DNA of 64,000 nucleotides, taken from contig CALXUE010000006.1 of NCBI GenBank assembly GCA_944391615.1, forward strand, positions 17,665 to 81,664, read 5' to 3'. Under the pieces are notes generated by a model that was given only the letters and a program-made list of their open reading frames with translations, did no database searches and was not told the origin of the DNA. Positions 21,504-64,000 of the stretch are shown piece by piece. Origin of the DNA: an uncultured Alphaproteobacteria bacterium. Its GTDB lineage: Bacteria; Pseudomonadota; Alphaproteobacteria; RF32; CAG-239. Position numbers and translations under genes: made by a program. Positions within the stretch are counted from its first letter, which is position 1. Each line of letters opens with the position of its first letter.

Positions 21504-21526
21504 ACCGCCGCACCGCCTCAATAAAC

Positions 21527-22222: not shown

Positions 22223-22286
22223 GGTATTCAGTCCTTAAAAATAAAGTTAACAATACAAAAACTAAAGTTAATATAATTCAAAAAAA

Positions 22287-24095: not shown

Positions 24096-24115
24096 AAAAC
24101 TCCAAATATCACAAA

Positions 24116-25684: not shown

Positions 25685-25826
25685 AAAATCAATCCCTAAA
25701 ACACAGGTAAGATAACATATAAAGACAAAAAAGTCCACAATTTTGTCATAATTTTTTTAGTGATTCATTAATTTTTTTATGCTATAATCAAATATAGATT
25801 AAAACGAAAGAGAGGGAGAATCACCA

Positions 25827-25999
25827 TGTCGGAATTAGGCGCGGTAAGCTCATATGCTCTTGCGGTGCAGGAAATGCAAATGTCCCTGATAAAGGAGCAG
25901 ATAGAGGCACAACAACAAATGGTAGAAGTATTGCTTGATCCGGATAGAAGCGTTCCGGTGTCAAAAACCGTTGGTCAAAACGTAGATATGTCGTTATAA
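25827..25999 (+). CDS. Small YjfB-like (putative motility) protein, about 57 aa; not in the ORF track
   Basis: It starts at an ATG with SD GAGGGAG at -8, is preceded by an extended -10 TGCTATAAT (25777-25785), and is followed by the terminator at 26025-26048. MSELGAVSSYALAVQEMQMSLIKEQIEAQQQMVEVLL resembles the short YjfB motility-protein family. Confidence 0.4.
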
Positions 26000-26024
26000 A
26001 TGAAGACAAACAATTCAAAAAAAA

Positions 26025-26048
26025 CAGCCAATTAAGGCTGTTTTTTTT
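26025..26048 (+). terminator. Rho-independent terminator
   Basis: CAGCC-aattaa-GGCTG is followed by TTTTTTTT. Confidence 0.6.
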
Positions 26049-26060
26049 AGTACAGAAAAA

Positions 26061-26378
26061 TTAAATAATGATAAAGTTAATAAACAACCCGCCGCAAATA
26101 CTCGAAAAATAAAAGGCCACAACGGAGGTGAATGTGTGTTTCAACATTTGTTTATAATCAAGGGACACACCATCATCCAAAAAACGTTGATTCAACGTAA
26201 AATTATAGAGTAGGGCAACTAAAATCACCAACAAGGCAAAAGCCCAATTTTTATAAAGAGCCAAAATTTGCTCCAAATCGAGCCAAATACCTTCAATAAG
26301 GCCAAACAAAATTCCCAACATCACCATCGGATGAAAGATAATACCGCTGGTAAAAAGAGCCATCAAGCCTTTAATCAT
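26061..26378 (-). CDS. Hypothetical small membrane protein
   Basis: It has three hydrophobic segments and no recognised family. Confidence 0.4.
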   Translation of the reverse strand: MIKGLMALFTSGIIFHPMVMLGILFGLIEGIWLDLEQILALYKNWAFALLVILVALLYNFTLNQRFLDDGVSLDYKQMLKHTFTSVVAFYFSSICGGLFINFIII

Positions 26379-26380
26379 GC

Positions 26381-26629
26381 TTAAAACCGCCCTTTAATAC
26401 GTTTTGAGAAAAAATTAGAATCACTTTCTTTAATGGAGCTAGGCCAAATAAAGCGTTGTCTGGAGGGGTTAGCAACAACTTCACCGTTTTTAATAATGGT
26501 AGAAGCAATCATAGAGATGTTGCCATGTTTCACTTTAGACTGAGAATTAAATCTAGACCAGTCAAAATTTTCAAAATCACGTGTATCCATAAACACCTCC
26601 ATAGCGTAACAGGAACATATAGAGTACAT
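26381..26629 (-). CDS. Hypothetical protein
   Basis: The ORF abuts 26061-26378 on the same strand and has no recognised family. Confidence 0.3.
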   Translation of the reverse strand: MYSICSCYAMEVFMDTRDFENFDWSRFNSQSKVKHGNISMIASTIIKNGEVVANPSRQRFIWPSSIKESDSNFFSKRIKGRF

Positions 26630-26741
26630 AATAAGTTGAAAAAGTAAACAAAAATTTAATCGATAAAGAAAAATAACTTGAGAAGAATAAAATTAGCAAA
26701 AAAAGATTGCCTAAACCCTTGTCAATCCTTGAAAATTTCTA

Positions 26742-26770
26742 TTTACAGCTTTTTATTTCTGTGCTATAAT
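26742..26770 (+). promoter_or_regulatory. Sigma70-type promoter of cassette 1 (TTTACA-17 bp-TATAAT) with an upstream CCTTG direct repeat
   Basis: The -35 TTTACA is at 26742-26747 and the -10 TATAAT at 26765-26770. The same 100-bp block is found at 39702-39799 and, inverted, at 35690-35788. CCTTGtcaatCCTTGaaaa lies at 26717-26735. Confidence 0.7.
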
Positions 26771-26806
26771 ACGAGTCGTGGAGATAAGTTGAAAGGTGTT
26801 TCGAAA

Positions 26807-27646
26807 ATGAAAAAACAAACTTTTTTGTTTTCAGCATGCAATGCTTTATTATGGCTTTTTAGTTATAATAATGTATATGCTGATGTTTCAAATTTCAAGA
26901 CAACAGACAAGGATTTTTTGACCAACACACAACACACACAGTTTTTGTCTGATGCCTCCGGCTTATCTCCCGATAAGTTTATCAAAGTTGCACAAGTTTG
27001 CTGGATTATGGACACCGGTGAATGTTTTGGTGTTAACTTTATTTCCGCTGACAGAGATTTGAATAATCCCTCTAACCCTGAAGATTATGTTCCCAAAGGG
27101 CCGGCTGATTGTATTGAAGAAGGTTATACCGTTACCAACTGTCCCAATGGCTATAAGGGCAACAAAGAATGTTTGTATGCCAAAGGGTATTATGCCGAAT
27201 GTATTGAAGACTGCCCCAGTAATTATAAACAATGTGAAGAGCCTTATCATGGTGTGGGGCAAGTTTGCGGCGATGGTTATTATGCCAGTTGTCAATGCGA
27301 CTACTGTGACGGATATTCCTACAAAAAAGAAGATATTCCCGATGGCTATGTGGCAGATGGTGAGCCTTGTAATTCATGCAATGGTCCAAGGTATAAAATC
27401 AAAGTCAACCCTTGTGAGGGTTATCAAGACTGCGGCTCGATGGGCGGCAAGGTCGGGGCAACATCCTGCTTGTCGGGCACGAATATGATGTATAGCGAAT
27501 GCAAACCTTGCCCGAGCTTAGGGGAATATGACACCTGTCCGCCGTGTTCGGTCTGTTCTTATGAAGAATGTTCCAACAAATATTATGTGACGGGTTGTGC
27601 TGCGGGCTGTCAAGATTACTGCGACTACTGCGCTTTTGAACAATAA
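26807..27646 (+). CDS. Cassette 1 gene A: secreted, extremely Cys-rich repeat protein of unknown family
   Basis: The start is at MKKQTF, downstream of the conserved promoter. It has a signal peptide (..NNVYA/DV) and more than 40 Cys in repeated CPxxY / GYYAxC / CxxC spacing. Paralogs lie at 34843-35682, 39803-40681 and 63826 to beyond 64000. Confidence 0.75.
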   Translation: MKKQTFLFSACNALLWLFSYNNVYADVSNFKTTDKDFLTNTQHTQFLSDASGLSPDKFIKVAQVCWIMDTGECFGVNFISADRDLNNPSNPEDYVPKGPADCIEEGYTVTNCPNGYKGNKECLYAKGYYAECIEDCPSNYKQCEEPYHGVGQVCGDGYYASCQCDYCDGYSYKKEDIPDGYVADGEPCNSCNGPRYKIKVNPCEGYQDCGSMGGKVGATSCLSGTNMMYSECKPCPSLGEYDTCPPCSVCSYEECSNKYYVTGCAAGCQDYCDYCAFEQ

Positions 27647-27691
27647 TCAGGGAAAGAGAGAGAAAGTTTAATTATTATTTAGGAGGAGAAA

Positions 27692-28489
27692 ATGAGAAAG
27701 TTTTTATTATATTCATCGGCTTTGGCGTTAGGTTTGAGCGGGGTGGCTGAGGCGGCCTGCATCCAAACACCAACGTGTTCATCTTTGGGCTACACCTCAA
27801 CTTCATCTTGCACCGGCGGAACCAAATGCCCCTTTGGCAATTACTGGAACTGCACCGCAGCTGACTTAAATAATAAGATTACGGAACTTGAAACCCAAAT
27901 CACTGAACTCAAAAAAGAAATGGTAATGTCTAACTGCCAAGTTGGTGATGTTTTGTATTCGGATATGACGATTAATCCTGATTATGTTAGTGGCAAAACA
28001 CCAATCGGCGTGGTATTTGATTGTCGAAAAAAATTAGCGATAGGGTTGGAGCAATCTGACGAAGAGTGGTCAATTACCGATGATTTTGATGTTCCTGGGG
28101 TTGAAAATATTACAGATACAACGAAGGTTTTGCAAGATATGGATGGAAAAAAGAATACGAGTACAATATTAGCCTATTGTAAAACAAAAGGGAAGCGTTG
28201 TCCGGCGTTTGAGTATGTGAATAGTTATAAAACAGAAGGAACTCAAGCAGGGGATTGGTACTTACCATCTATGGGAGAATTATATGCGATATATGGTAAT
28301 ATGGGTGTATTGAATGTTACGTTAATAAAAATAGTGGCAACAAGGCTTGTTGCAAGTTACTATTGGTCTTCTTCCGAGTATTCAAGCACCGACGCGTGGA
28401 ATTTGAGGTTCAGTAGCGGTAACGTGAACTACAACGATAAGTACCACAGTGCCGATTTCGGTTACGTTCGCCCAGTCCTAGCTTTTTAG
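27692..28489 (+). CDS. Cassette 1 gene B: secreted protein with a Cys-motif N-module, a coiled coil and a DUF1566/Fib_succ_major-like C-terminal domain
   Basis: It has an RBS GGAGGAG and a signal peptide (GVAEA/AC). The N-module is AACIQTPTCSSLGYTSTSSCTGGTKCPFGNYWNC, followed by a KITELETQITELKK heptad. The C-terminus PIGVVFD...AGDWYLPSMGELYAIYGN...YYWSSSEYSSTDAWNLRFSSGNV...YVRPVLAF resembles the Lcl C-terminal/DUF1566 pattern. Confidence 0.75.
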   Translation: MRKFLLYSSALALGLSGVAEAACIQTPTCSSLGYTSTSSCTGGTKCPFGNYWNCTAADLNNKITELETQITELKKEMVMSNCQVGDVLYSDMTINPDYVSGKTPIGVVFDCRKKLAIGLEQSDEEWSITDDFDVPGVENITDTTKVLQDMDGKKNTSTILAYCKTKGKRCPAFEYVNSYKTEGTQAGDWYLPSMGELYAIYGNMGVLNVTLIKIVATRLVASYYWSSSEYSSTDAWNLRFSSGNVNYNDKYHSADFGYVRPVLAF

Positions 28490-28518
28490 GTTCTTAATCA
28501 AAAACTCAAAAGCCCGTT

Positions 28519-28545
28519 CATTATGAGCGGGCTTTGGCTTAAGGT
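28519..28545. terminator. Bidirectional hairpin terminator between cassette 1 gene B and ispA
   Basis: AAAGCCCGTTCAT-t-ATGAGCGGGCTTT. The same stem core also follows cassettes 2 and 3. Confidence 0.6.
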
Positions 28546-28552
28546 GTCATCC

Positions 28553-29446
28553 TTAGTTTTTACGTTCGATGATATATGAGGCCAGTAGGCGCAGGTTTTC
28601 AGCTTTTGCTCCAAATGAGCTTAAAGCTTCTTGCGCTTTTTCAACCAGTTCTTTTTCAATTTGTTTGGCTTTATCTAGTCCGTAAAGACTAACAAAAGTC
28701 ATTTTGCCTTGAGCGGCATCTTTGTTCAAAGTCTTTCCCACCAGTTTTGGGTCCCCCTCGACGTCCAAAATATCATCAGCAATTTGAAAAGCGACTCCGA
28801 TTCCTCTAGAATATTCCAACAACTTTTGTCTTTCAGCATCAGATGCTTGTCCCAAAATTGCACCAGCCTCACAAGCAAAGCTAATCAAGCGGCCTGTTTT
28901 CATCTCTTCAATACGTTTTATAATTGTTTCGGAAGTTTGCTTAGGGTTATCTTCAGCATAAATATCAAGCATTTGTCCGGCAACCATTCCACCAAGAGCC
29001 CCAGCCCCTGACGACAATTTGGCAATCAGCTCACAGCGAATATCAGCAGAAGCCGTGCGGGCATCAGACAAAATTTCAAAAGCATAGGTCAACAAACCAT
29101 CGCCTGCCAAAATAGCCGTTGCCTCATCAAAAGCTTTATGGCAGGTCGGCTTGCCGCGGCGCAAATCATCATTATCCATAGCAGGCAAATCATCATGAAT
29201 AAGCGAATAGCTGTGCAAACATTCCAGAGCAACCGCCGTGCGCAAAGTTTTTTCAAAATCGAGGCCGAACAAGCTCCCCGTTTCATTCACCAAAAACGGA
29301 CGCATACGTTTGCCGCCGTTCATAACCGAATATTTCATCGCCTCGACCACCCGATTTTCGGGCAAATTACTAAGCGGAAAAAATTCGCTCAAACGCGCAT
29401 TAAAAGCCTGAGCATACGCAGAAAGTGTTTCTTTGATAGTCATCAT
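28553..29446 (-). CDS. ispA: Farnesyl diphosphate synthase (polyprenyl synthetase)
   Basis: The first DDxxD motif (LIHDDLPAMDNDDLRRGKPT) and the second motif (FQIADDILD) are present. Confidence 0.85.
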   Translation of the reverse strand: MMTIKETLSAYAQAFNARLSEFFPLSNLPENRVVEAMKYSVMNGGKRMRPFLVNETGSLFGLDFEKTLRTAVALECLHSYSLIHDDLPAMDNDDLRRGKPTCHKAFDEATAILAGDGLLTYAFEILSDARTASADIRCELIAKLSSGAGALGGMVAGQMLDIYAEDNPKQTSETIIKRIEEMKTGRLISFACEAGAILGQASDAERQKLLEYSRGIGVAFQIADDILDVEGDPKLVGKTLNKDAAQGKMTFVSLYGLDKAKQIEKELVEKAQEALSSFGAKAENLRLLASYIIERKN

Positions 29447-29454
29447 TGATTTAA

Positions 29455-29724
29455 TTATTCCTCAATCTTGTCCAAAGGCGTTGTGCTAAGTTCGCCGTTT
29501 TTGCCGATTTCCAACTTTTCGATTTTCAACTCGGCCGCCTTGAGTTTTTGCTCACAAAACTTTTTCAAAGCCACGGCTTTTTCATAAGCACTAACGGCAT
29601 CATCCAATTTAATGCGGCCGCTTTCCAACTCTCTGACAATGCTTTCAAGCTTGATGAGTGCGTCTTCAAAAGACAAGTTTTCCAAATCCAGATTTTCCAT
29701 TTTAATCTCCTCTATTTTTTTCAC
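29455..29724 (-). CDS. xseB: Exodeoxyribonuclease VII small subunit
   Basis: This is a short coiled-coil protein (LSFEDALIKLESIVRELESG) that follows ispA, as in the conserved xseB-ispA arrangement. Confidence 0.75.
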   Translation of the reverse strand: MKKIEEIKMENLDLENLSFEDALIKLESIVRELESGRIKLDDAVSAYEKAVALKKFCEQKLKAAELKIEKLEIGKNGELSTTPLDKIEE

Positions 29725-29870
29725 TATACATTATTATATTTCTTTCGCAACAATTATATAAAACTTATGTTTATTAACCGAATTGTTATATAAATATTAG
29801 TTGTATGGCATCTCCCTTTATTAGAAAAATGTGTTAAATTTTAGAGACAGTGTTTAAGAGGAGGTGTGTG

Positions 29871-30155
29871 ATGCGTCGGGAAATTATCTTGAATATAGCC
29901 AAAATTCTAAAAGCTTTAGGCAATGACAAACGCCTAAGTATTGTGATGTATTTAGCCAATAAAGAACTAAAAGTCAATGATTTGGAACAACTCGTCGGTT
30001 TAAGCCAATCAGCCTTAAGTCAGCATTTGGCTGTATTGCGTGCCGAAAAAATTGTCAAGACCAGACGCGAAGCACAATCCATTTTTTATTCTCTCGCAGA
30101 TAAAAATGTTTTGGAATTACTGAATACGTTATGCAAACTTTATGCACAAGACTAA
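29871..30155 (+). CDS. ArsR/SmtB-family transcriptional regulator
   Basis: The start is at MRREI with SD AAGAGGAGG. It has the winged-HTH ALGNDKRLSIVMYL...VNDLEQLVGLSQSALSQHLAVL. Confidence 0.75.
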   Translation: MRREIILNIAKILKALGNDKRLSIVMYLANKELKVNDLEQLVGLSQSALSQHLAVLRAEKIVKTRREAQSIFYSLADKNVLELLNTLCKLYAQD

Positions 30156-30158
30156 GAT

Positions 30159-31319
30159 TTATGATTTATCTTCAATAAACTCAATTTTTTGCTCATCCGT
30201 ATTATATTTGATAAGCAATTTACCTTCTCGCAAAGTGAGCGCACGCTGACCAAAAACCTCTCTGCGCCAACCTTTAAGCATATTCAACCCCAAGTCTTTA
30301 TGCGCCGAAAAAAGTTTTAGCTCATCATCTGAAGCAATAATATGCGGCACACACTTTTCATCTTGAGCAATCAAATTAAGCAAAAGTTTCAACAATTCAT
30401 ACAAATTAGCATTACAAACAATTCTTTTTTCCGGCGGCAGTTTGGCATAATCGCTATGAGGCATTTGCTCCACTTTTTGAATAACATCAAGAATTTCAGC
30501 GCCTAACTTGCCTTTTGCCACATCAGCGCGCATATTGCGAATTTGCAAGAGCTCTTCTACGGAATGAGGCATTTCAGCAGCCACATTGAGCAAACATTCA
30601 TCTTTGATGATATTTTGTTTAGGAACATTTTTAAGCTGCGCGCGCCGTTCTCGCCAAGCAGCCAGTTCTCGCAAAACGGTAAGATATTTGCGGTTATGCG
30701 AATGTTGCCGCAATTTCAGCCAAGCTTTCATCGGGTCATTTTCATAAGTTTCGATTTTCAATAGCGGCTGCATTTCTTCATCCAGCCAATGTTCGCGGTG
30801 TGTCTGCGCAATTTGGTCCCGCATAAATTCATAAATATGTACAAGATGCGTCACATCAGAAATCGCATAAGAAAGTTGCTTTTCACTTAGGGGACGCACA
30901 CACCAGTTGGTCAAGCGGGAGCTTTTATCAAGCTCAATCCCCAAAATGGCATTAACCAAACTTTCATAGCTTGAAAAAGAACCAAACCCGCAAATTTGGG
31001 CGGCAATCTGCGTATCAAACAACGGATGCGGAATAAACCCTGCTTTTTGATACAAAATTTCAATATCCTGCCTGCAAGAATGAAAAACTTTCACAATTTT
31101 AGGGTTATCCAAAACCGCAAAAAACCTTGCTAAATCAATATCTTTAGATAAGGGATCAATAATAGCCTCAAAGTCTTTTGCTCCAACTTGAATCAAGCCC
31201 AATTGAGCATAATACGTTTTTTCCCGATGAAATTCCAAGTCCACGGTAATAAAGTCTTGCTGTTCCAGATTCTGGCAAAATTCATCAAGCTGTTGATTTG
31301 TGGTTATGAGGTTTATCAT
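30159..31319 (-). CDS. rnd: Ribonuclease D
   Basis: It has a DEDDy 3'-5' exonuclease N-domain (ITVDLEFHRE...YAISDVTHL) and a C-terminal HRDC-like region. Confidence 0.8.
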   Translation of the reverse strand: MINLITTNQQLDEFCQNLEQQDFITVDLEFHREKTYYAQLGLIQVGAKDFEAIIDPLSKDIDLARFFAVLDNPKIVKVFHSCRQDIEILYQKAGFIPHPLFDTQIAAQICGFGSFSSYESLVNAILGIELDKSSRLTNWCVRPLSEKQLSYAISDVTHLVHIYEFMRDQIAQTHREHWLDEEMQPLLKIETYENDPMKAWLKLRQHSHNRKYLTVLRELAAWRERRAQLKNVPKQNIIKDECLLNVAAEMPHSVEELLQIRNMRADVAKGKLGAEILDVIQKVEQMPHSDYAKLPPEKRIVCNANLYELLKLLLNLIAQDEKCVPHIIASDDELKLFSAHKDLGLNMLKGWRREVFGQRALTLREGKLLIKYNTDEQKIEFIEDKS

Positions 31320-31478
31320 CGCATATTTTCCTTTTCTTTGACACTCAAGTTATAGCCCATTCTGAAACAAGTTGCAACTTTTTTTAAGGCCGGAAAAAAC
31401 GCTTGCATTTTGACAAAATTTTGTATAGAGTATTGAGCGAGATAATTATCATTATGTTTAACAAAAAAATTTATATTT

Positions 31479-31997
31479 ATGTTTACAATTTTTCTGGCTC
31501 CGAAACACGGAGAAAATTCTTCTCAAAAAAAATTTGAAGAATTTGTGTCGCATTCACTGGTTGAAGCCGGTATCGCGCCTGAGCTATTGTCGCCGGCAGT
31601 TGCGGTTATCCCTGACAATGGGAATGTTTTAAAAACCAACGGAATTGTCGTTGCTTTTAATGAAAAAGAACCTTGTTTGAAGGCTGCTTTTGTCCTAAAG
31701 CCATATTTGCGGCTTGAAGCTTATACTGTTCCGCTGAATGAGGCTTTGCCGCTGAACTGCTTTCGGGCAATTGTCCATATGCGGTCATACACAGATGCTG
31801 CCGACATTTGTCATATGTTAATTCAATCTGCGGACTTTGAGCCGGTAACCATCGTATTCTTTGAATACATGTATGGTACCTTAGCCTTTGGCGCCATACG
31901 TCAGCTTGAAGCTGAAGACATTGATACTTGGAAGTCAAAGGTCAAAAAAATTTGCGCCAAGATGGATTTAACATCCGTTATATTTGAAGTGCGCTAA
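31479..31997 (+). CDS. Hypothetical protein
   Basis: The ORF lies between rnd and aspS and has no recognised family. Confidence 0.35.
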   Translation: MFTIFLAPKHGENSSQKKFEEFVSHSLVEAGIAPELLSPAVAVIPDNGNVLKTNGIVVAFNEKEPCLKAAFVLKPYLRLEAYTVPLNEALPLNCFRAIVHMRSYTDAADICHMLIQSADFEPVTIVFFEYMYGTLAFGAIRQLEAEDIDTWKSKVKKICAKMDLTSVIFEVR

Positions 31998-32139
31998 CTT
32001 CTTAAAAAAATTTTTTTCAAGCCGTGAGGATGTTTCCTTGCGGCTTTTTTGTGTTTACCGCCTGATAAAGATGCTTGCTTTTATAAAAAAATAGCGTTAA
32101 AACATAAAAACTATTGTTTAATATTTTTTAGAGGGAAAA

Positions 32140-33909
32140 ATGAACAGATACCGCACACATACCTGCGGCGAGCTCAGAGCTTCAGATAAAGGAAAAGAAG
32201 TCAAGCTTGCCGGCTGGATTCATCGTAAACGCAATTTGGGTAACTTATGCTTTGTGGATTTACGAGATCATTATGGTATCACTCAATGCGTTTTTGACAG
32301 CCACTCCGACCTATTTGAAAAAATTGAGGCCCTGCGTGTTGAATCCGTTATCGGCATCACCGGTGAGGTTGTCATCAGAGAAAGCGTAAATAAAAATATT
32401 CCGACAGGCGATGTTGAAATCAAAGTTAAAGCATTGGAAGTTTATTCCGAAGCCGACATTTTGCCGGTACAGGTTGCTTCAGATGGGGGCGAACCTGAAG
32501 AAATGCGCTTAAAATATCGTTTTTTGGACTTACGCAAAGACCGCATTCACAAAAACATTTTGTTGCGTTCAGCCGTAATCCAACGCTCGCGCGAATTGAT
32601 GAGGGAACAAGGTTTTACCGAATATCAAACGCCGATTTTAACCTCTTCATCACCCGAAGGTGCCAGAGATTTTTTAGTTCCGTCTCGCTTGAACCCAGGA
32701 AAGTTTTATGCTTTGCCGCAAGCTCCGCAACAGTTCAAACAGTTGCTGATGGTATCCGGTTTTGATAAATATTTCCAAATTGCCCCGTGCTTTAGAGATG
32801 AAGACCCGCGAGCAGACCGCTCTCCGGGTGAATTCTACCAGATGGATATGGAAATGAGCTTTGCCGAACAAGAAGATGTGTTTAAGGTGATTGAACACAC
32901 ATTGGGCACAATCTTTAATGAATTTGCCAACGGCAAAACCGTTGACCAAGCACCCTATGTGCATATTCCGTTCCGTGAGGCCATGCTCAAATATGGTTCG
33001 GACAAGCCGGACTTAAGAAACCCTCTGTTTTGGAAAGAGAGTTCTTCTTTGTTTGGCGAAAGTGGCTTTGGTGTTTATGACTTTATGGTTAAAGAGGGAA
33101 AAACCGTTAAAGGAATGAGAGTTGCCGGTTTGGCCTCAAAACCACGCTCTTTCTTTGACAAGCTTGATGCTTTTGCCAAAGGAGAAGGTATGGGCGGAAT
33201 TGCTTATATCGCTTGGGCAGAAGGCGGCATCAAAGGTATTTCCCGTATGTTGACAGAAGAAAAAGTTGCTGAAATCAAAAAATATTTTGATGCTCAAGAC
33301 GGAGACGCGGTTATCTTTGTTATCGGACAAGGCATGCACTTTGACAAGTTCAGCGGCAAACTGCGTACCCACGTGGCTGAAGAGTTGAGCTTGATTGATG
33401 AAAATACATTCAAAATGTGCTGGATTGTTGATTTTCCGTTCTATGAAGAAAATGAAGAAACCGGCGCGGTTGAATTTTCGCACAACCCATTTTCAATGCC
33501 TCAAGGCGGCATGGATGCTTTGTTAAACAAAAATCCATTGGATATTTTGGCTTATCAATATGACTTTGTGTGCAATGGTGTTGAGCTATTGTCCGGAGCT
33601 GTTCGTAACCACGAACCGGACATTATGTATAAGGCTTTTGAAATTGCCGGTTATGACAACAGCGTGGTTGATGCCAAGTTTGGCGGAATGATTAGCGCGT
33701 TTAAGTTTGGCGCACCTCCGCACGCTGGCTCGGCTTATGGTGTGGACAGATTGGTTATGTTGCTTTTGGACGAGCCAATCATCCGTGATGTGATTTTATT
33801 CCCACTCAACGGCAAGGCTCAAGACCTGATGATGCAGGCTCCGAACTTTGTCACTCAAGAACAACTTGATGAATTGCACATTAAAGTTGTTCCGGTTGAG
33901 AAGAAATAA
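32140..33909 (+). CDS. aspS: Aspartate--tRNA ligase
   Basis: It has an N-terminal OB fold (RTHTCGELR), class II motifs (FRDEDPRADR, GGMISAFKFGAPPHAGSAYGVDRLVMLL) and the 589-aa length typical of bacterial AspRS. Confidence 0.9.
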   Translation: MNRYRTHTCGELRASDKGKEVKLAGWIHRKRNLGNLCFVDLRDHYGITQCVFDSHSDLFEKIEALRVESVIGITGEVVIRESVNKNIPTGDVEIKVKALEVYSEADILPVQVASDGGEPEEMRLKYRFLDLRKDRIHKNILLRSAVIQRSRELMREQGFTEYQTPILTSSSPEGARDFLVPSRLNPGKFYALPQAPQQFKQLLMVSGFDKYFQIAPCFRDEDPRADRSPGEFYQMDMEMSFAEQEDVFKVIEHTLGTIFNEFANGKTVDQAPYVHIPFREAMLKYGSDKPDLRNPLFWKESSSLFGESGFGVYDFMVKEGKTVKGMRVAGLASKPRSFFDKLDAFAKGEGMGGIAYIAWAEGGIKGISRMLTEEKVAEIKKYFDAQDGDAVIFVIGQGMHFDKFSGKLRTHVAEELSLIDENTFKMCWIVDFPFYEENEETGAVEFSHNPFSMPQGGMDALLNKNPLDILAYQYDFVCNGVELLSGAVRNHEPDIMYKAFEIAGYDNSVVDAKFGGMISAFKFGAPPHAGSAYGVDRLVMLLLDEPIIRDVILFPLNGKAQDLMMQAPNFVTQEQLDELHIKVVPVEKK

Positions 33910-33927
33910 CGCCAGCATTTATAAATA

Positions 33928-33953
33928 ACAAGTCAAAGCCCGCTCACTCAAGA
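33928..33953. terminator. Bidirectional hairpin terminator between aspS and cassette 2 gene B
   Basis: AAAGCCCGCTCAC-tcaag-AACGGGCTTT has the same stem core as 28519-28545. Confidence 0.6.
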
Positions 33954-33981
33954 ACGGGCTTTGTGGTTTTTGATTAAGAGC

Positions 33982-34797
33982 CTAAAAAGCTAGGACTGGA
34001 CGAACGTACTCGCTAAGGTAGTTCTTATAGTAGTAGTCCACGTATCCGTCACTGAACCTCAAATTCCACGCGAAGTCGCTTGAATACTCGGAAGAAGACC
34101 AATAGTAATTTGCACCAAGCCTTGTTGCCGCTATTTTCCCTAACGCAACATTTAACACACTCATATTACCATATATCGCATATAATTCTCCCATAGATGG
34201 TAAGTACCAATCTCCTGCTTTTGTTCCTTCTGTCTTATAGCTATTCACATACTCAAACGCCAGACAATGCTTCCCTTTTGTTTTACAATAAGCCAATACC
34301 GTACTTGTATTCTTTTTCCCATCCAAGTCTGCTATCGCTAATGTACGGTCTGTTATATTATCAACCCCTGGAACATCAAAATAATCTGGATATGACCAAT
34401 GTTGTTGAGATTGCTCCAACCCTATAGCCAATTTTCCACTATGGTCAAACACCACGCCGATTGGCGTTTTTGACACAACATAATTTGAATTGCACGTCAT
34501 ATCCGAATACAATATATCTCCGACCAAACAGTTGGCGGTTGAAACTTCTTTTTTGAGTTCAGTGATTTGGGTTTCAAGTTCCGTAATCTTATTCGTTTGT
34601 TCTGTAATCTTATCATTTAAATCGCTTGCGGTGCAGTTCCAGTAATTTCCGAAGGGGCATTTTGTTCCACCGGTGCAAGATGAGGTTGAGGTATAACCCA
34701 AGCTTGAACAACTCGGGGTCTGAATACAAGCCGCAAGTACAGTGTCGCTAAAACCAAACACTGCCAAAGCCGATGAATATAATAAAAACTTTCTCAT
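33982..34797 (-). CDS. Cassette 2 gene B (paralog of 27692-28489, about 80% aa identity)
   Basis: It has the same N-module (AACIQTPSCSSLGYTSTSSCTGGTKCPFGNYWNC), coiled coil and DUF1566-like C-terminus ending YVRPVLAF. RBS GGAGGAG. Confidence 0.75.
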   Translation of the reverse strand: MRKFLLYSSALAVFGFSDTVLAACIQTPSCSSLGYTSTSSCTGGTKCPFGNYWNCTASDLNDKITEQTNKITELETQITELKKEVSTANCLVGDILYSDMTCNSNYVVSKTPIGVVFDHSGKLAIGLEQSQQHWSYPDYFDVPGVDNITDRTLAIADLDGKKNTSTVLAYCKTKGKHCLAFEYVNSYKTEGTKAGDWYLPSMGELYAIYGNMSVLNVALGKIAATRLGANYYWSSSEYSSDFAWNLRFSDGYVDYYYKNYLSEYVRPVLAF

Positions 34798-34842
34798 TTT
34801 CTCCTCCTAAATAATAATTAAACTTTCTCTCTCTTTCCCCGA

Positions 34843-35682
34843 TTACTGTTCAAAAGCGCAGTAGTCGCAATAATCGGCACAACCTGTGGCGCAACCCGTC
34901 ACATAATATTTGTTGGAACATTCTTCATAAGAACAGACCGAACACGGCGGGCAGGTGTCATATTCCCCTAAACTCGGGCAAGGCTTGCATGCGCTATACA
35001 TCATATTCGTGCCCGATAAGCACGAGGTTGCTCCGACCTTGCCGCCCATCGAGCCGCAATCTTGATACCCCTCACAAGGGTTAGGCTTAATTTTATACAC
35101 CTCGCCGTTGCAGGATACGCAAGGCGCCCCGTCCGCCACATAGCCATCGGGAATATCTTCTTTTTTGTAGGAATAGCCGTCGCAGTAGTCGCATTGACAA
35201 CTGGCGTAATAACCATCGCCGCATTCTTGCCCCACACCATGATAAGGCTCTTCACATTGCTTATAATTACTGGGACAGTCTTCAATACATTCGGCATAAT
35301 ACCCTTTGGCATACAAACATTCTTTGTTGCCCTTATAGCCATTGGGACAGGTAGTAATGGTATAACCTTCTTCAATACAATCAGTCGGCCCTTTGGGAAC
35401 ATAATCTTCAGGGTTAGATGGATTATTCAAATCTCTGTCAGCGGAAATAAAGTTAACGCCGAAACATTCACCGGTGTCCATAATCCAGCAAACTTGCGCA
35501 ACTTTGATAAACTTATCGGGAGATAAGCCGGAGGCATCAGACAAAAACTGTGTGTGTTGTGTGTTGGTCAAAAAATCCTTGTCTGTTGTCTTGAAATTTG
35601 AAACATCAGCATATACATTATTATAACTAAAAAGCCATAATAAAGCATTGCATGCTGAAAACAAAAAAGTTCTATTTTTCAT
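34843..35682 (-). CDS. Cassette 2 gene A (paralog of 26807-27646, about 95% aa identity)
   Basis: It is collinear with 26807-27646 and nearly identical, including the signal peptide and Cys spacing. It lies downstream of the inverted copy of the promoter block. Confidence 0.75.
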   Translation of the reverse strand: MKNRTFLFSACNALLWLFSYNNVYADVSNFKTTDKDFLTNTQHTQFLSDASGLSPDKFIKVAQVCWIMDTGECFGVNFISADRDLNNPSNPEDYVPKGPTDCIEEGYTITTCPNGYKGNKECLYAKGYYAECIEDCPSNYKQCEEPYHGVGQECGDGYYASCQCDYCDGYSYKKEDIPDGYVADGAPCVSCNGEVYKIKPNPCEGYQDCGSMGGKVGATSCLSGTNMMYSACKPCPSLGEYDTCPPCSVCSYEECSNKYYVTGCATGCADYCDYCAFEQ

Positions 35683-35718
35683 TTTCGAAACACCTTTCAA
35701 CTTATCTCCACGACTCGC

Positions 35719-35747
35719 ATTATAGCACAGAAATAAAAAGCTGTAAA
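35719..35747 (-). promoter_or_regulatory. Sigma70-type promoter of cassette 2 (inverted copy)
   Basis: The reverse complement gives TTTACA (35742-35747), a 17-bp spacer and TATAAT (35719-35724). The CCTTG direct repeat lies at about 35755-35775 on the minus strand. Confidence 0.7.
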
Positions 35748-35846
35748 TAGAAATTTTCAAGGATTGACAAGGGTTTAGGCAATCTTTTTTTGCAAAAAAA
35801 ACGCCCGAGTTTTATCCTCGAGCGTTATAAAAATTATAAATTATGT

Positions 35847-36692
35847 TTACTTTTGGGGAGCTCCCAGCATCACAACCGGATCTTTAATTTCTTCTCCATC
35901 CAAAGAGTATTTTGAAACTTGCGCTTTATCCAACACCTGTTTGAAAAGCTCACCAACAGCATTTTGGTAAAGCATTTTTTGCAATCCGGGCTTAACTTTA
36001 TCATAAGGTTGTGGTTCGGCATCACGAATATCTTCAAGCAAAATCACATGGTAGCCAAATTGAGTTTTGACCGGTGTTTGAGAAAACTTGCCTTTTTTCA
36101 TGGCAAATACTGCGTTTGAAAATTCAGGCACCATTTGGTTTTTAGTAAAATAGCCCAAGTCGGCAACAGGGTCTTTAGAATACTTTTTAGCCAAATCATC
36201 AAACTTTTCGCCTTTTTTCAGTTTGGCAATAATGCTTTTTGCTTCGCTTTCTGTGTCAACCAAAATATGTTTGGCATGAGCTTCTTTTTGGTCTTTGAAA
36301 GTTTTTTTGTAATCTTTATAAAGCTTTTTGGTTTCGGATTCGGTAACTTTTTTCTTGGCAAATTTATCAATATACATATTGCGAGCCAAATCCTCTTTCA
36401 TGGCTTTTACGGCACGGGCATATTCCGGTGTTTCGGTCACCCCGTTAGCAACGGCAGCCTGATACAACAGTTTGCCGTTAACATAGATGTCTAATGCTTT
36501 TTCGTAATATTTCGGAAATGAAACTTGTTCTTTAATTGGGGCATTATCTTCATAACCCTGTTTCATTTCTTTAACGGTAATTTTTTCTCCGTTAACGATA
36601 GCAGCAACGCCGTCTTTACCTTCGGCCTGAGCAAAACTCGGGCTCAAAGCCAAAATAGATAAGGCAGCCAAGGCCAATATTTTGTTTTGCAT
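35847..36692 (-). CDS. Periplasmic peptidyl-prolyl cis-trans isomerase, parvulin (PpiC) type, SurA/PpiD-like
   Basis: It has a signal peptide (ALSPSFAQA), a chaperone-like N-domain and a parvulin domain (HILV...GDLG). Confidence 0.65.
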   Translation of the reverse strand: MQNKILALAALSILALSPSFAQAEGKDGVAAIVNGEKITVKEMKQGYEDNAPIKEQVSFPKYYEKALDIYVNGKLLYQAAVANGVTETPEYARAVKAMKEDLARNMYIDKFAKKKVTESETKKLYKDYKKTFKDQKEAHAKHILVDTESEAKSIIAKLKKGEKFDDLAKKYSKDPVADLGYFTKNQMVPEFSNAVFAMKKGKFSQTPVKTQFGYHVILLEDIRDAEPQPYDKVKPGLQKMLYQNAVGELFKQVLDKAQVSKYSLDGEEIKDPVVMLGAPQK

Positions 36693-36875
36693 AGAATCTT
36701 CTCCTTTGTGTGTTTTTTTTTGCATTCTTTATTTCATATAACTTATGCGGTTTAATTTTCCAAGAGCTTTTTTAACAGGGGTTTATAACTTTGGAGGTAA
36801 GTATTGACTTTATCTTTTAGAAACACTAAATGTAGTATAATTGCATAAACATATATATATTAAGGTAAAAAAATA

Positions 36876-39626: not shown

Positions 39627-39647
39627 AGTAAATAAGAACCGATGAAA

Positions 39648-39690
39648 GAAAAAATCTCTCAAGAATAAAAACTTGAGGGATTTTTTTTTG
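39648..39690 (+). terminator. Rho-independent terminator after secA
   Basis: The hairpin TCTCAAG..CTTGAGGGA is followed by TTTTTTTTT. Confidence 0.5.
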
Positions 39691-39745
39691 CAAAAAAAGA
39701 TTGCCTAAACCCTTGTCAAACCTTGAAAATTTTTATTTACAGACT

Positions 39746-39774
39746 TTTTTCCTTGTGCTATAATACGAGTCGTG
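39746..39774 (+). promoter_or_regulatory. Sigma70-type promoter of cassette 3
   Basis: TTTACA (39746-39751), a 17-bp spacer and TATAAT (39769-39774). The upstream block is conserved, including CCTTGtcaaaCCTTGaaaa. Confidence 0.7.
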
Positions 39775-39802
39775 GAGATAAAGTAATTGAAAGGAAATTA
39801 TC

Positions 39803-40681
39803 ATGAGTAAGCGGAAGTTTATCTTGTTGGCTTCGTTGTCTGTATGCGCGTTTGTTGCGGAGACGGCGCAAGCCGATATTTCTTCTTCAATGAATTATAT
39901 ATTCAAAGATGTTACACTTTTCAACACACTTCACACACATTTATCTTTGAATGGAGCTTTATCTCCACAACAAGTTTCAAAAAATCAAAAATCTTTGGTT
40001 AAGGTAGCCCAAGTCTGCTGGATTATGGACACGGGAGATTGCGCCGGTTTGGACTTTGTGAGTTCGGATATTAATGGTTCGGGCAATAAACCACCGAGCG
40101 AATATGACAAGAAAGGCCCTGAAGATTGTATCAAAGAGGGTTACACCATCACCAACTGTCCGGATGGGCAAAAAGGTGACGGAGAATGTATGTATGCCAA
40201 TGGCTACTATGCCAAATGTATTCCCGACTGCCCGTCATCTTATACCACCTGCACGTCGCCTTATAAAGGGGTGGGGCAAGTTTGTGGGGATGGCTTGTAT
40301 GCGGAATGTTGTCAAGACACTTGTCCGGCAGATTACAAATACACCTTAGGTTCAATTCCTGACGGATATGAGGCGGTTGGAGAACCTTGTGTGCAATGCA
40401 ACGGTAATAACACCACGGCAGTCAAAAAATACAGAGTGAAAGAAAAAGACTGTTCCGGATTTTTGGATTGCGGGACTTTAGGCTGTGAAACAGGGGCAAC
40501 GACTTGTCAATCAGGAAGCGTGGTTAAGTGTTCAAAATGCAAACCTTGCCCGAATTTGGGCTCAGAAAGTGAATGTCCACCATGCACAGTCTGCAGCTTT
40601 GAGGAATGTTCAAACTTATACATCGTCAGCGGTTGCAAAACAAATTGTACCGATTATTGCAACTACTGCGCTTCTGAATAA
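39803..40681 (+). CDS. Cassette 3 gene A (divergent Cys-rich paralog)
   Basis: It has a signal peptide (AETAQA/D), the conserved KVAQVCWIMDTGDC block and the same Cys-repeat architecture, ending CNYCASE. Confidence 0.7.
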   Translation: MSKRKFILLASLSVCAFVAETAQADISSSMNYIFKDVTLFNTLHTHLSLNGALSPQQVSKNQKSLVKVAQVCWIMDTGDCAGLDFVSSDINGSGNKPPSEYDKKGPEDCIKEGYTITNCPDGQKGDGECMYANGYYAKCIPDCPSSYTTCTSPYKGVGQVCGDGLYAECCQDTCPADYKYTLGSIPDGYEAVGEPCVQCNGNNTTAVKKYRVKEKDCSGFLDCGTLGCETGATTCQSGSVVKCSKCKPCPNLGSESECPPCTVCSFEECSNLYIVSGCKTNCTDYCNYCASE

Positions 40682-40722
40682 GGGCAAGAGAGAAAAGTTT
40701 AATTATTATAACGGAGGAGAAA

Positions 40723-42003
40723 ATGAAAAAATTTTTATTATATTCAACCGCATTCGTAGTTTTGAGCGGGACGGCAAATGCAGCCTGTATCCAAACCCCG
40801 AGTTGTGCCAGTTTGGGATATGACAGTAACTCAGCCTGTGAAAATGGTCTAAAATGTCCGTGGGGCAATGCTTGGTATTGCAAAGTCGGAGAATTGGAGG
40901 AAGCAGTCAACAATGCCGAAAAAGCAAAAACTTGTATCCCCGGAGCCGTTTTTAACTCCGATCGTAGTTGTACCGAAAAACAAGAACTTGGCAAAATTCC
41001 GATTGGTGTTGTTGTCTATGCTGACGGCAAAGGCCACGGCCAAGCCATGGCTTTAGAAAAAATAGATATTGTAGCATTAAACAATTATTTAAAAACTGTT
41101 AAATACACAACTTTTTCTAAGTATCCAAATAAATATGCAGTAGAGTATCGTTACACTTATGCTAGACACTCAAGTGGAGATGAAGAATATGTAAAATGGC
41201 CTCAAGAAAAATGTATATCAACAGATGATATATATGTTAAAGGATTGAAAGAGTTTTCTAATTTAGAAGAAGCATCGCTTGAATTTGATAGTAAAAACAT
41301 TACAGCTCAAATACAACAATCACTAAACACAAATAATGCTAAGATTCAACAATATTTTAATACGGCGTCTGCATTAAATTCTATTGTGAATGAATCTAAA
41401 ATTATGGAGTGTAGTCGTTCTAATGTAGTAGGCTATCCATGTTATCTTTACGAGGTTAGTAATAAATCGGAATACTATTGGTATTCAGGTGATGCATCCA
41501 CATCTTTGCTTAAAACCATACAAAAAATAAAAGCTTATAAAACAACAGGAACCTCAGCTGGAGATTGGAATATGCCTGCCCCTGGAATATTTAATTCTAT
41601 AAAAGTAAATTTTGAAAAGATTAAAGAAACTTATGCCTTACTTAATAAAAATTTTAACTATAATCAAATGGTTACAATGGGAATGTATATCAAAAATGCA
41701 GGAGAAAAGACAAATAAAAAATGTACGTTTATGGATGCTAAATTTACGAGTAATGATGGTGATATAGATAAAAATTATCAAAGTTATCAATATGATTCAA
41801 GTTATTCAAGTCCATCAGACACGTACTCTCAGTATTACTATTATTATCTAATACCAACAACAGATTTCAATACTAAATTACCATCTGTTTCAGCGGAAAT
41901 AACATCATATCCAAAATACATAGCATTTTCAAATTCTGCAACGTATGGTACAGCAACCACATCATCAGGAGGAAAGCAAATCTATCCTGTAATTGACTTT
42001 TAG
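40723..42003 (+). CDS. Cassette 3 gene B (divergent, extended paralog with an N/Y/S-rich low-complexity C-terminal region)
   Basis: The N-module AACIQTPSCASLGYDSNSACENGLKCPWGNAWYC and the block PIGVVVY...GTSAGDWNMPAPGIFNSI align to the other B genes. The C-terminus is replaced by a Tyr/Asn/Ser-rich sequence. Confidence 0.65.
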   Translation: MKKFLLYSTAFVVLSGTANAACIQTPSCASLGYDSNSACENGLKCPWGNAWYCKVGELEEAVNNAEKAKTCIPGAVFNSDRSCTEKQELGKIPIGVVVYADGKGHGQAMALEKIDIVALNNYLKTVKYTTFSKYPNKYAVEYRYTYARHSSGDEEYVKWPQEKCISTDDIYVKGLKEFSNLEEASLEFDSKNITAQIQQSLNTNNAKIQQYFNTASALNSIVNESKIMECSRSNVVGYPCYLYEVSNKSEYYWYSGDASTSLLKTIQKIKAYKTTGTSAGDWNMPAPGIFNSIKVNFEKIKETYALLNKNFNYNQMVTMGMYIKNAGEKTNKKCTFMDAKFTSNDGDIDKNYQSYQYDSSYSSPSDTYSQYYYYYLIPTTDFNTKLPSVSAEITSYPKYIAFSNSATYGTATTSSGGKQIYPVIDF

Positions 42004-42014
42004 AAAAAACACAA

Positions 42015-42040
42015 AAGCCCGTTTCTAAAAAGAACGGGCT
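42015..42040. terminator. Hairpin terminator after cassette 3 gene B (convergent with the T4CP gene)
   Basis: AAAGCCCGTTTCT-aaaa-AGAACGGGCTTT. Confidence 0.6.
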
Positions 42041-42064
42041 TTATCTTATGACCAAAGGATAACT

Positions 42065-44272: not shown

Positions 44273-44290
44273 TCAATCCTTTAAGCACTT

Positions 44291-45655: not shown

Positions 45656-45715
45656 AGCATCAAACCCTTAATTAAAATATGACATGTAAGATAGCACAAC
45701 AAAGTTAATAATAGA

Positions 45716-46201: not shown

Positions 46202-46226
46202 GAGCGCTCCCAACAGCAACAAAAAA

Positions 46227-47672: not shown

Positions 47673-47745
47673 ACATTCATTTGTTTAATCTAACTTGATA
47701 GTAACACAAAAAACAAATTTTGTCCATTATTTTTGTTGAATACAA

Positions 47746-48657: not shown

Positions 48658-48660
48658 AAA

Positions 48661-48954: not shown

Positions 48955-49022
48955 AATGATTTTCCTTGCAAAAATTAAAGCATAGAGTATTTTTATCATA
49001 AATGCAAAAATAGGATTTGTAA

Positions 49023-50012: not shown

Positions 50013-50094
50013 TGTATTAAAACTAAAGAATAGATTGCAGATAGAAAAGACGCAATATAAAGTTATAGAGGTTCATTTAGGGAGAGTTTAGAAA

Positions 50095-62900: not shown

Positions 62901-63791
62901 TTAGAAAGCAATCACTGGACGAGCTATGTAAACATAATGATAATAACCAGTAAATCCATCATAAATACTATCTCCGGTATTCGTGTGATTTATTGATGTT
63001 TTATTTTCTTCACCCCTCCCATATAAATAAGCCTTTTGTTTATCTATCGCTGTTGAAGTCCAATAATAGACATTATAAACATGTTGCTGATGGTTTCCAT
63101 GGCTATTTGAATAGTCATAAAGAGGTTTTTTATTTATTTTCTTAATAGTATCATTGATGGTACTTTTGTGAGTGCTAATATAGTTAAACTCCACAAAAGA
63201 TGGCAAATGCCAATCTCCGGCACTTGTACCGGCGGTTTTATATTCATAGGCATATTCCACTGCCGGACAGCTTTTACCGTTTGCTTTACAATATTCATAA
63301 ATAACTCGGGTGTTTTTTTTCCCCCATCCATCATATGCATAATCATTCGGATGCAAATCGAGCCCTGGGATATCAAAAGCAGTCGTTGACCACGCAACAT
63401 TTTCTTTTTCCTCCAAAGCCACAGCCAAATAGTTTGTCACATCAAACACCACGCCGATTGGCTCTTTGGTGTAAACCACGTCTGTGTTACAGCTAAAATC
63501 ATCATACAAAATATCACCAACTTTGCAGTTTACCTTGTTTTCATTATTGGAGCCTTGCTGAATTTTTTTGATTGTGGTTTCAAGTTCGGTAATTTTGTTA
63601 TTAAACTCTGTTTTAATATCATTAATGCTGCAGTTCCAAGCGTTGCCAAACGGACACTTTGTTCCCCCCGAACAAGACGAACTCGAGGTGTAGCCCAAGC
63701 TTGAGCAGCTTGGCGTTTGAATACACGCCGCCTCAGCCACGCCACTTAACCCCACCACCAAAGCTGAACTCATTAATAAAATCTTTCTCAT
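62901..63791 (-). CDS. Cassette 4 gene B (paralog with the Cys N-module and a DUF1566-like C-terminus)
   Basis: The start is at MRKILLM with RBS GGAGGAG; the longer tracked ORF is an out-of-frame read of the A-gene 3' end. The N-module is AACIQTPSCSSLGYTSSSSCSGGTKCPFGNAWNC, the coiled coil is KITELETTIKK, and the C-terminus is AGDWHLPSFVEF...YYWTSTA...YIARPVIAF. Confidence 0.7.
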   Translation of the reverse strand: MRKILLMSSALVVGLSGVAEAACIQTPSCSSLGYTSSSSCSGGTKCPFGNAWNCSINDIKTEFNNKITELETTIKKIQQGSNNENKVNCKVGDILYDDFSCNTDVVYTKEPIGVVFDVTNYLAVALEEKENVAWSTTAFDIPGLDLHPNDYAYDGWGKKNTRVIYEYCKANGKSCPAVEYAYEYKTAGTSAGDWHLPSFVEFNYISTHKSTINDTIKKINKKPLYDYSNSHGNHQQHVYNVYYWTSTAIDKQKAYLYGRGEENKTSINHTNTGDSIYDGFTGYYHYVYIARPVIAF

Positions 63792-63825
63792 TTTCTCCTC
63801 CATTATAATAATTAAACTTTCCTCT

Positions 63826-64000
63826 CTCTTGCCCTTATTCAAAAGCGCAGTAGTTGCAATAATCGGTACAACCCGTTTTACAGCCCGAAACGACATATAA
63901 GTTTGAACATTCCTCAAACGTGCAGACCGTACACGGCGGACATTCACTTTCTGTACCCAAATTCGGGCAAGGCTTGCAACGTGAGCATTTTGTCACACTC
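63826..64000 (-). CDS. Cassette 4 gene A, 3' portion (continues beyond the window end)
   Basis: The reverse-strand translation ends ...CTDYCNYCAFE-stop, matching the C-termini of the other A genes. The ORF is open to the window edge. Confidence 0.6.

Follow-up and report, generated by a model that had tools for sequence, protein, structure and literature searches.

The 64-kilobase (kb) stretch of DNA from an uncultured alphaproteobacterium analysed here (called the window when its full length is meant) carries two facing copies of a two-gene operon, cassette 1 on the forward and cassette 2 on the reverse strand, in which a gene for a cysteine (Cys)-rich protein (A) is followed by a gene for a protein with an Lcl-type C-terminal domain (B). 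The two cassettes are probably members of a multicopy operon family whose copies exchange modules and shorter patches by homologous recombination at conserved anchors. Recombination between copies is strongly supported by comparison of the sequences, and the gene conversion that a preliminary description of this DNA had proposed is supported by mosaic identity and synonymous divergence (dS), by clustered mismatches, and by strain differences that look templated.

Cassettes 1 and 2 form an inverted repeat around a housekeeping block

A repeat search identified inverted arms at 26693-27726 and 34763-35796 (1034 nucleotides (nt), 94% complementary), which were extended by segments of 136 nt (82%), 245 nt (79%), 326 nt (87%), and 57 nt (91%) to 28519 and 33952. 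In total, the arms measure 1827 nt in cassette 1 (26693-28519, forward strand) and 1845 nt in cassette 2 (33952-35796, reverse strand), with 5432 nt between them. In a sliding-window alignment, background identity was reached just beyond 26690 and 28520, the two ends of the cassette 1 arm. As the cassettes face each other, they constitute an inverted repeat, and it encloses a 5.4-kb housekeeping block just as the preliminary description had stated. Each arm is a complete predicted transcription unit consisting of promoter, A, B, and terminator: a 45-nt gap that contains a strong ribosome-binding site separates the A and B genes, B ends in front of a GC-rich hairpin, and the two cassette promoters are the top sigma-70-like matches between 26.3 and 36.1 kb. 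The features of these and of the two further cassettes in the window are as follows.

26693..26806, forward strand: promoter and leader of cassette 1, putative 5' recombination anchor; 98.2% identical to cassette 2 and 91% to cassette 3
26742-26770, forward strand: core promoter of cassette 1, TTTACA-17-TATAAT with a TG extension; best sigma-70-like match in 26.3-36.1 kb (11/12)
26807..27646, forward strand: gene A1, 279 amino acids (aa); predicted secreted Cys-rich protein of an undescribed family
27650..27726, forward strand: putative A-B junction anchor; spacer with ribosome-binding site and first 35 nt of B (signal peptide MRKFLLYSSAL)
27692..28489, forward strand: gene B1, 265 aa; Cys motif at the N-terminus, predicted helical stalk, Lcl-type C-terminal domain
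28463..28540, forward strand: putative 3' anchor of cassette 1; RPVLAF codons and stop, then GC-rich terminator hairpin
33934..34008, reverse strand: terminator and putative 3' anchor of cassette 2; terminator-like hairpin at 33963-33934
33982..34797, reverse strand: gene B2, 271 aa; Lcl_C, 78% (aa) and 81% (nt) identical to B1
34843..35682, reverse strand: gene A2, 279 aa; 95% (aa) and 92.9% (nt) identical to A1
35683..35796, reverse strand: promoter and leader of cassette 2; TTTACA-17-TATAAT at 35747-35719
39687..42040, forward strand: cassette 3; A3 at 39803-40681, B3 at 40723-42003, promoter and junction kept, interior divergent
62901..64000, reverse strand: cassette 4; B gene and 3' end of an A gene truncated by the window boundary

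Over the entire repeat, cassettes 1 and 2 share 88.5% nt identity. This amounts to 98.2% in the promoter and leader, in agreement with the near-identity noted before, 92.9% in the A coding sequence, 100% in the A-B spacer and the first 35 nt of B, and 80.9% in the remainder of B (78% aa identity between the B proteins). The value of about 95% given in the preliminary description for the A genes is correct for the proteins (95% aa) but too high for the DNA.

Identity between the two copies is mosaic

Plotted along both copies, where conversion tracts had been anticipated, identity was mosaic and not uniform, with breaks at the promoter, the A-B junction, and the 3' end. Between adjacent 60-nt windows it swings from 100% to 65%, and the 62 mismatches in the promoter and A module (26693-27726) are unevenly spread, with 21 of them in one 60-nt window and none in a stretch of 174 nt. 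Permutation of the mismatches gave p = 4.5e-4 for the 174-nt run, and the cluster was reached in 0 of 20,000 shuffles. While dN/dS (the ratio of nonsynonymous to synonymous divergence) of A1 and A2 was 0.12 overall, dS ranged from 0.02 to 1.06 across 45-codon blocks, a variation that indicates differing ancestries along the gene rather than selection at the protein level. Indeed, the closest relative along 1 kb of A1 alternates between cassette 2, two copies from other samples (L001 and L002), and cassette 2 of a more distant strain (L069), and the divergent 3' tails of A1 and A2 each find a 98% match elsewhere, in L001 and L002, respectively. The high-identity arm stops exactly at the family-wide junction anchor, which argues that promoter and A together make up one exchangeable module. 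As to the recent conversion of the A portion that had been suggested, a homogenisation of A separate from that of B is supported, but the donor need not be cassette 2, because over some segments L001 and L002 are at least as close.

A simple recent inverted duplication without later recombination, after which B diverged faster under diversifying selection, would be in line with the greater diversity of B throughout the family (at 90% identity, at least 1203 B-type clusters versus 71 found for A) and with a dN of 0.151 between B1 and B2, five times that of A1 and A2. However, dS is likewise higher in B (0.50 versus 0.28) and spans a 50-fold range within A, neither of which selection on the proteins can cause. 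In addition, the differences are clustered and matched in other copies, and a strain with 99% identical flanks carries another A type at locus 1. Together, these points make a duplication of this kind very improbable.

Conserved segments at the promoter, the A-B junction, and the 3' end

Three segments of the cassettes are conserved at the nucleotide level. The promoter segment (26693-26787) is conserved in all copies and is ~85% identical in other species. The junction segment (27663-27726) is likewise conserved in all copies, with 87-90% identity to cassettes 3 and 4 and matches of 29-39 nt at 95-100% identity in another species. The third segment, the 3' end from the RPVLAF codons into the terminator, is kept across loci and species. 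This conservation extends to species whose A proteins are only ~45% identical, and it frames a variable interior, with 45-55% identity between A proteins across copies (53% between A3 and A1). Between-strain comparisons show the same boundaries: identity breaks at ~26787 in L069, L071, L072, and L074-76 and returns right after the terminator hairpin of cassette 1.

In the recombining operon family that we favour, the promoter, the A-B junction, and the 3' end would serve as homology anchors for general, presumably RecA-dependent, homologous recombination, and whole A or B modules as well as shorter patches would move between copies and between strains. Uninterrupted identity of cassettes 1 and 2 is well above the minimum of tens of bases for RecA pairing, with a longest exact run of 174 nt (26818-26991) and further exact runs of 75, 77, and 59 nt. 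An arrangement of one expression locus with promoterless silent donors was not found, as all copies examined keep the promoter, ribosome-binding sites, two complete open reading frames (ORFs), and the terminator.

About 50 nt upstream of the -35 hexamer are also conserved in every cassette (GCAAAAAAAGATTGCCTAAACCCTTGTCAATCCTTGAAAATTT; window positions 26693-26740, 35750-35806, and 39677-39730). This segment begins directly after the T-run of the neighbour's terminator and, judged by its conservation, could be a site for a shared regulator or an UP element. An Rfam scan returned a single transfer RNA (tRNA) only and no match in the conserved cassette leader.

Cassettes differ between otherwise identical strains

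All comparison sequences are consensus contigs assembled from short-read metagenomes. The 96.7-kb scaffold L059, assembled from another sample, runs collinear with window positions 21479-40676 and differs from the window at 0 of 14,536 nt of unique DNA and at 74 of 4,662 nt in the cassettes (13 in cassette 1, 13 in cassette 2, and 48 in A3). The same contrast was observed for L070 (0 of 10,632 unique versus 12 of 865 cassette positions) and for L080-82. Between strains of different samples that are otherwise identical, differences were seen in the cassettes alone, and those between the window and L059 look templated. At the variable sites of cassette 1, the window base equals that of its own cassette 2 at 10 of 13 positions, and at those of cassette 2, the L059 base equals that of cassette 1 at 5 of 13. 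In addition, a GGAT/TTTC substitution at 26911-14 and at the homologous positions 35575-78 distinguishes the window from L059 in both copies together.

Mosaicism and strain differences might instead be consensus errors arising from a collapsed multicopy family, given that contigs end within A genes in most samples and that L059 joins A3 to another B gene and other downstream genes, in contrast to L091, a scaffold of that sample that is identical to the window. Yet the inverted repeat and its mosaic profile are reproduced in L059 at 99.6% identity, and contigs from other samples (L060, L062-64, and L091) are 100% identical to the window through parts of the cassettes. Moreover, the cassette 1 allele of L059 largely recurs in L070, an independent sample from a different study batch, which speaks against assembly noise. 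An artefact of this sort is an unlikely source of the overall pattern.

The discrepancy at cassette 3 calls for more caution. There (18209-20519 of L059), L059 matches the window up to ~40392 in A3 and then diverges, with 44 differences in 285 nt. Beyond this break follow another B gene (455 aa) and rpoZ-relA-acpS-lepB-rnc. L091, whose positions 1-2046 represent the cassette 3 part, is by comparison 100% identical to window positions 39958-52003. Two cassette loci may have undergone a reciprocal exchange here, or else the scaffold is chimeric; in either case, assemblies of the lineage are not to be trusted blindly at cassettes.

In L069, the more distant strain, the flanks are 99% and the block 97.6-100% identical to the window, but the cassettes only 62-90%, with breakpoints within the promoter and immediately past the terminator. 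Here, locus 1 carries an A gene of the cassette 3 type and locus 2 an A gene of the window type, and these two are only ~50-65% identical to each other. The different A type at locus 1 indicates that an inverted repeat of high identity is a feature particular to the window's lineage. In the simplest history suggested by these alignments, locus 1 received a copy of an A module of the window type within that lineage. This module (26693-27726) would derive from a same-type A gene, either that of cassette 2 or another copy, and short tracts of it would have been overwritten since then, in part by exchange between cassettes 1 and 2. The 3' untranslated regions of the two L069 cassettes are identical to each other and different from the window's pair, a second sign of concerted change within the pair.

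Diversity could also arise mainly by import between strains, through transformation or conjugation, via the conserved housekeeping flanks. Such import would explain the replacement of whole cassettes at loci 1 and 2 of L069, where the breakpoints lie at or just beyond the cassette ends, and the raised density of single-nucleotide polymorphisms (SNPs) in aspS and a 172-aa ORF adjoining cassette 2. These two genes are 97.6-97.9% identical to L069, as against 99-100% for the rest of the block, a divergence that fits a recombination tract reaching out of cassette 2. A gene for a type IV secretion coupling protein beside cassette 3 likewise favours import. The near-clonal comparison, with 0 flank SNPs in 14,536 nt alongside cassette changes, and the many changes that match a paralogue of the same genome argue in the other direction, and we regard import as a possible but doubtful main source of the diversity. 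Import between strains and intragenomic conversion can both be true.

Several points weigh against an operon family that recombines within the genome. Repeats like these can be mis-phased in short-read assembly, and contigs do break inside cassettes; at cassette 3, L059 conflicts with L091 from the same sample. Import via flanking homology could replace cassettes without any intragenomic conversion, which the divergence of aspS and the 172-aa ORF in L069 fits. Finally, neighbouring cassette pairs in related metagenome-assembled genomes (MAGs) show no consistent excess of similarity over distant pairs: three of eight neighbouring inverted pairs lay above the 90th percentile and four of eight below the median, a mixed result that is not significant.

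A large dispersed cassette family

The pair of cassettes 1 and 2 is not a special structure but belongs to a large family of dispersed copies. A search of 185,579 species-representative genomes turned up A-like genes in no more than five MAGs, each of them labelled as uncultured Alphaproteobacteria. The window itself encodes GcrA, which fits this class. The five MAGs contain 56 loci, and two of them hold at least 24 and 26 copies when second copies located in the flanks are counted. Several complete paralogues occupy dispersed loci: the window has four copies, and further loci within the same species group are the L001 and L002 copies from other samples, which sit between exbD and a trypsin-like protease gene and between pfk and a NUDIX gene, respectively. 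In related species, cassettes are found at different sites and in different orientations.

A discrete block between inverted repeats, together with cassettes that vary in site and orientation among related species, might suggest that the cassettes are the ends of a composite transposon or of an invertible element run by a recombinase. We searched the window ORFs of at least 100 aa (64 kb) and found no transposase, recombinase, integrase, invertase, or reverse transcriptase. Each repeat spans an entire operon rather than a short recombinase site, and the block consists of core housekeeping DNA whose synteny is preserved in another species (L025). A mobile element of either type is thus extremely improbable.

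Specific element classes were rejected as follows. For a composite transposon or insertion sequence, no transposase was found in the window ORFs of at least 100 aa, and the cassette ends are a promoter and a terminator without matching termini. An inverton or shufflon is not compatible with repeats that are 1.8-kb operons and with window ORFs of at least 100 aa that contain no recombinase domain. For a diversity-generating retroelement, no reverse transcriptase was found in these window ORFs and variants are not confined to adenine positions. A silent-cassette system was dismissed since every copy examined bears a promoter.

More tentatively, the family might constitute a genome-wide network under selection, in which at least ~25 co-regulated adhesin operons would keep their anchors for recombination and shuffle A and B modules faster than point mutation, giving variation with all copies expressed. 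The anchors would then also be the main sites at which chromosomes of the lineage break and rearrange. If this speculative picture were true, it would provide a host-associated uncultured alphaproteobacterium with adhesin or antigen variation.

Orientation of the bracketed block and gene-order breaks at cassettes

The block between the cassettes has about equal coding length on both strands, and Pfam agrees with the gene names originally given to it (ispA, xseB, ArsR, rnd, hypothetical, aspS).

28553..33909, both strands: housekeeping block (Pfam); 0 differences to L059, 97.6-100% identical to L069
28553-29446, reverse strand: ispA (Pfam polyprenyl_synt)
29455-29724, reverse strand: xseB (Pfam Exonuc_VII_S)
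29850-30155, forward strand: gene for an ArsR-family regulator (Pfam HTH_5)
30159-31319, reverse strand: rnd, ribonuclease (RNase) D (Pfam DNA_pol_A_exo1 and HRDC)
31479-31997, forward strand: hypothetical protein of 172 aa that matches no Pfam family
32140-33909, forward strand: aspS, aspartyl-tRNA synthetase (AspRS; Pfam tRNA-synt_2 and GAD)

The uvrC-side flank lies next to the ispA end and the ppiC-side flank next to the aspS end. An identical arrangement is present in two independent metagenome assemblies, L059 and L069, and is therefore not peculiar to the assembly of the window.

The preliminary description regarded the pair as a substrate for inversion of this block and raised the prospect of both orientations among strains. 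The first part holds as far as homology is concerned, since the 174-nt exact run suffices, but no flipped block occurs in the three spanning assemblies. The second was not confirmed: synteny is identical in the window, L059, and L069, and L070, which joins the left flank to a cassette 1-specific patch (27355-27406), is consistent with it. The opposite orientation of 28.5-33.9 kb was not seen in the three spanning consensus assemblies, a comparison of low power in which a minority orientation would be hidden. Contigs with the opposite flank linkage were not found either, most contigs ending inside cassettes. Inversion of 28.5-33.9 kb thus appears plausible but was unobserved. A reciprocal crossover in the same tract would invert this segment nearly silently: with a crossover in A, genes and terminators would stay beside their present neighbours and only the 98% identical promoters would be swapped, so that inversion should have next to no effect on fitness and should not function as a switch. 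No recA gene lies within the 64-kb window.

An actively inverting locus, with the block in both orientations among cells or strains, would draw on ample homology (the 174-nt exact run and ~650 nt at ~97% identity) and on the signs of sequence exchange between cassettes 1 and 2. For the tufA and tufB genes of Salmonella, which evolve in concert by recombination, up to 50% of the exchange events give an inversion (PMC6735719). Counter-selection would be expected to be weak because a crossover in A leaves genes and terminators intact, and synteny breaks of related species fall exactly at cassettes. Against active inversion stand the shared orientation of the window, L059, and L069, the consistent L070, and the failure to find the opposite linkage. 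As consensus assemblies hide a minority orientation, this evidence against inversion is weak, and we consider active inversion improbable.

In related species, blocks collinear with the window run unbroken to a cassette and then stop (L003, L004, L017, L030, and L045; the DNA sampled lies within 10 kb of cassettes), and only the arrangement cassette 2-ppiC-secA-cassette 3 is conserved, in one species (L047). These gene orders fit a role of cassettes as breakpoints of rearrangement. Gene-order breaks at cassettes were also noted in L028, L047, L048, and L057. In another species (L025 1-12500, BRZ_SN bin90), the ispA-xseB-arsR-rnd-aspS block lies again between a cassette pair, whose identity profile is the same as in the window, with 925 nt at 92% identity and B at ~80%. 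Both of these cassettes face outward, and three extra genes separate ispA from one of them. Because crossovers within cassettes preserve the 3' neighbour, they cannot interconvert the arrangements of the window and L025.

The A and B proteins

A is a protein of 279 aa with a signal peptide and more than 25 Cys residues that are invariant in the family alignment. It is without match in Pfam, NCBIfam, or PHROG, and a profile search of 1.84 billion representative proteins recovered only 324 relatives. In the AlphaFold2 (AF2) model, residues 95-275 have a predicted local distance difference test (pLDDT) score of 83-94, and no significant fold neighbour was found for the model in the PDB. Some A relatives are far longer, for example P0072 with 1067 aa and seven matched stretches. 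Their alignments suggest that the long relatives consist of a repeated Cys-rich module. Examined as possible A-B fusions, none of the longer A-like proteins contained Lcl_C.

B combines a signal peptide, a four-Cys N-terminal motif, a predicted helix at residues 57-80, and a C-terminal Lcl_C domain (Pfam PF07603; 36.6 bits for B1 and 36.5 bits for B2, cut-off 34.9). Its AF2 model matches 4eps, a fimbrial protein of Bacteroides ovatus (E 2.9e-5), and 8q4e, the C-terminal domain of Legionella Lcl (E 7.6e-4). NCBIfam searches with B gave matches to Lcl and FimD below threshold only, and PHROGs one family of unknown function. In Legionella pneumophila, the C-terminal domain of Lcl sits on a stalk and is an adhesin module that forms trimers and binds glycosaminoglycans (PMC11162425). 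B likewise has the Lcl-type C-terminal domain, by Lcl_C, 8q4e, and 4eps, but differs from Lcl in its short helical stalk instead of collagen repeats, in the extra N-terminal four-Cys motif, and in that it is always paired with the Cys-rich protein A. Based on domain matches and structural models, we infer that the operon most likely encodes a surface or secreted adhesin-like complex, with signal peptides in both A and B and the likeness to adhesins coming from B alone (Lcl_C and fimbrial folds).

B3 (426 aa) has the signal peptide, the N-terminal Cys motif, and a C-terminal ending similar to those of B1 and B2, but is much longer. It is rich in tyrosine, asparagine, and serine and remains below every Pfam and NCBIfam threshold. 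Its dissimilarity indicates that the B position can hold quite different proteins.

Comparison with known recombining gene families

By analogy, the family as a whole appears to work most like the bab genes of Helicobacter pylori or the opa genes of Neisseria, and the pair itself like tufA and tufB. The bab genes (babA, babB, and babC) and other Hop adhesins of H. pylori are complete promoter-bearing paralogues at a few fixed loci, with conserved ends and divergent middles. The allele at each bab locus differs by strain, and gene conversion between loci gives rise to chimeras. The distribution of bab paralogues is the subject of PMC4552749. The cassettes, too, are complete promoter-bearing paralogues with conserved ends, mosaic alleles, and strain-specific locus occupancy: in the short-read assemblies, mosaic segments match other paralogues and the occupancy of loci differs between strains. 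In contrast to bab, the cassettes are two-gene operons with a third, internal anchor, which would make A and B separately exchangeable, and they number dozens of copies instead of three. The proteins are unrelated, with a Cys-rich protein and an Lcl-type domain here and outer-membrane barrels in bab, and no phase-variable simple repeat was seen in the cassettes.

The opa genes are about a dozen dispersed, complete, and individually transcribed copies that form mosaics via recombination between loci. Expression of opa switches through a pentamer repeat located in the sequence for the signal peptide, whereas no such repeat is present in the sequence of cassettes 1 and 2, and the proteins are again unrelated. 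Templated segmental replacement bounded by conserved sequence is also known from Neisseria pilE/pilS, Borrelia vlsE, and Anaplasma msp2. These silent-cassette systems rely on one expression site and promoterless donors, unlike the cassette copies examined here with their promoter, ribosome-binding sites, and terminator. For tufA and tufB, inverted copies co-evolve by homologous recombination, and the same events can flip the DNA between them (PMC6735719, PMC5485169). The tuf copies are kept near-identical by purifying selection and lie 761 kb apart, while cassettes 1 and 2 are 5.4 kb apart, 88.5% identical overall, and take sequence from many further donors.

Novelty lies in the protein family and in the architecture of two genes and three anchors; the mechanism is already known. 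The inverted repeat itself is ordinary, a pair of oppositely oriented paralogues able to convert and, in principle, to invert. The family represents an undescribed two-gene cassette for predicted secreted proteins that accounts for a considerable share of the small genomes of an uncultured lineage of Alphaproteobacteria. If confirmed, it would point to the proteins that are the likeliest mediators of interaction with host or environment, offer a natural system for measuring conversion versus crossover between diverged repeats, and caution against relying on short-read MAGs of this lineage at any cassette.

Neighbouring genes

Directly downstream of cassette 3, the type IV secretion coupling protein gene (T4SS-DNA_transf, TraG-D_C) occupies 42065-44272 on the reverse strand and is followed by four ORFs without a Pfam family. 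A cassette adjoining such a gene is kept in two other species (L017 and L026). Beside uvrC lies a 540-aa ORF (24116-25738, reverse strand) without a Pfam match. Elsewhere this ORF is called as 522, 523, 534, or 544 aa, and the differing calls between samples point to a length polymorphism among strains.

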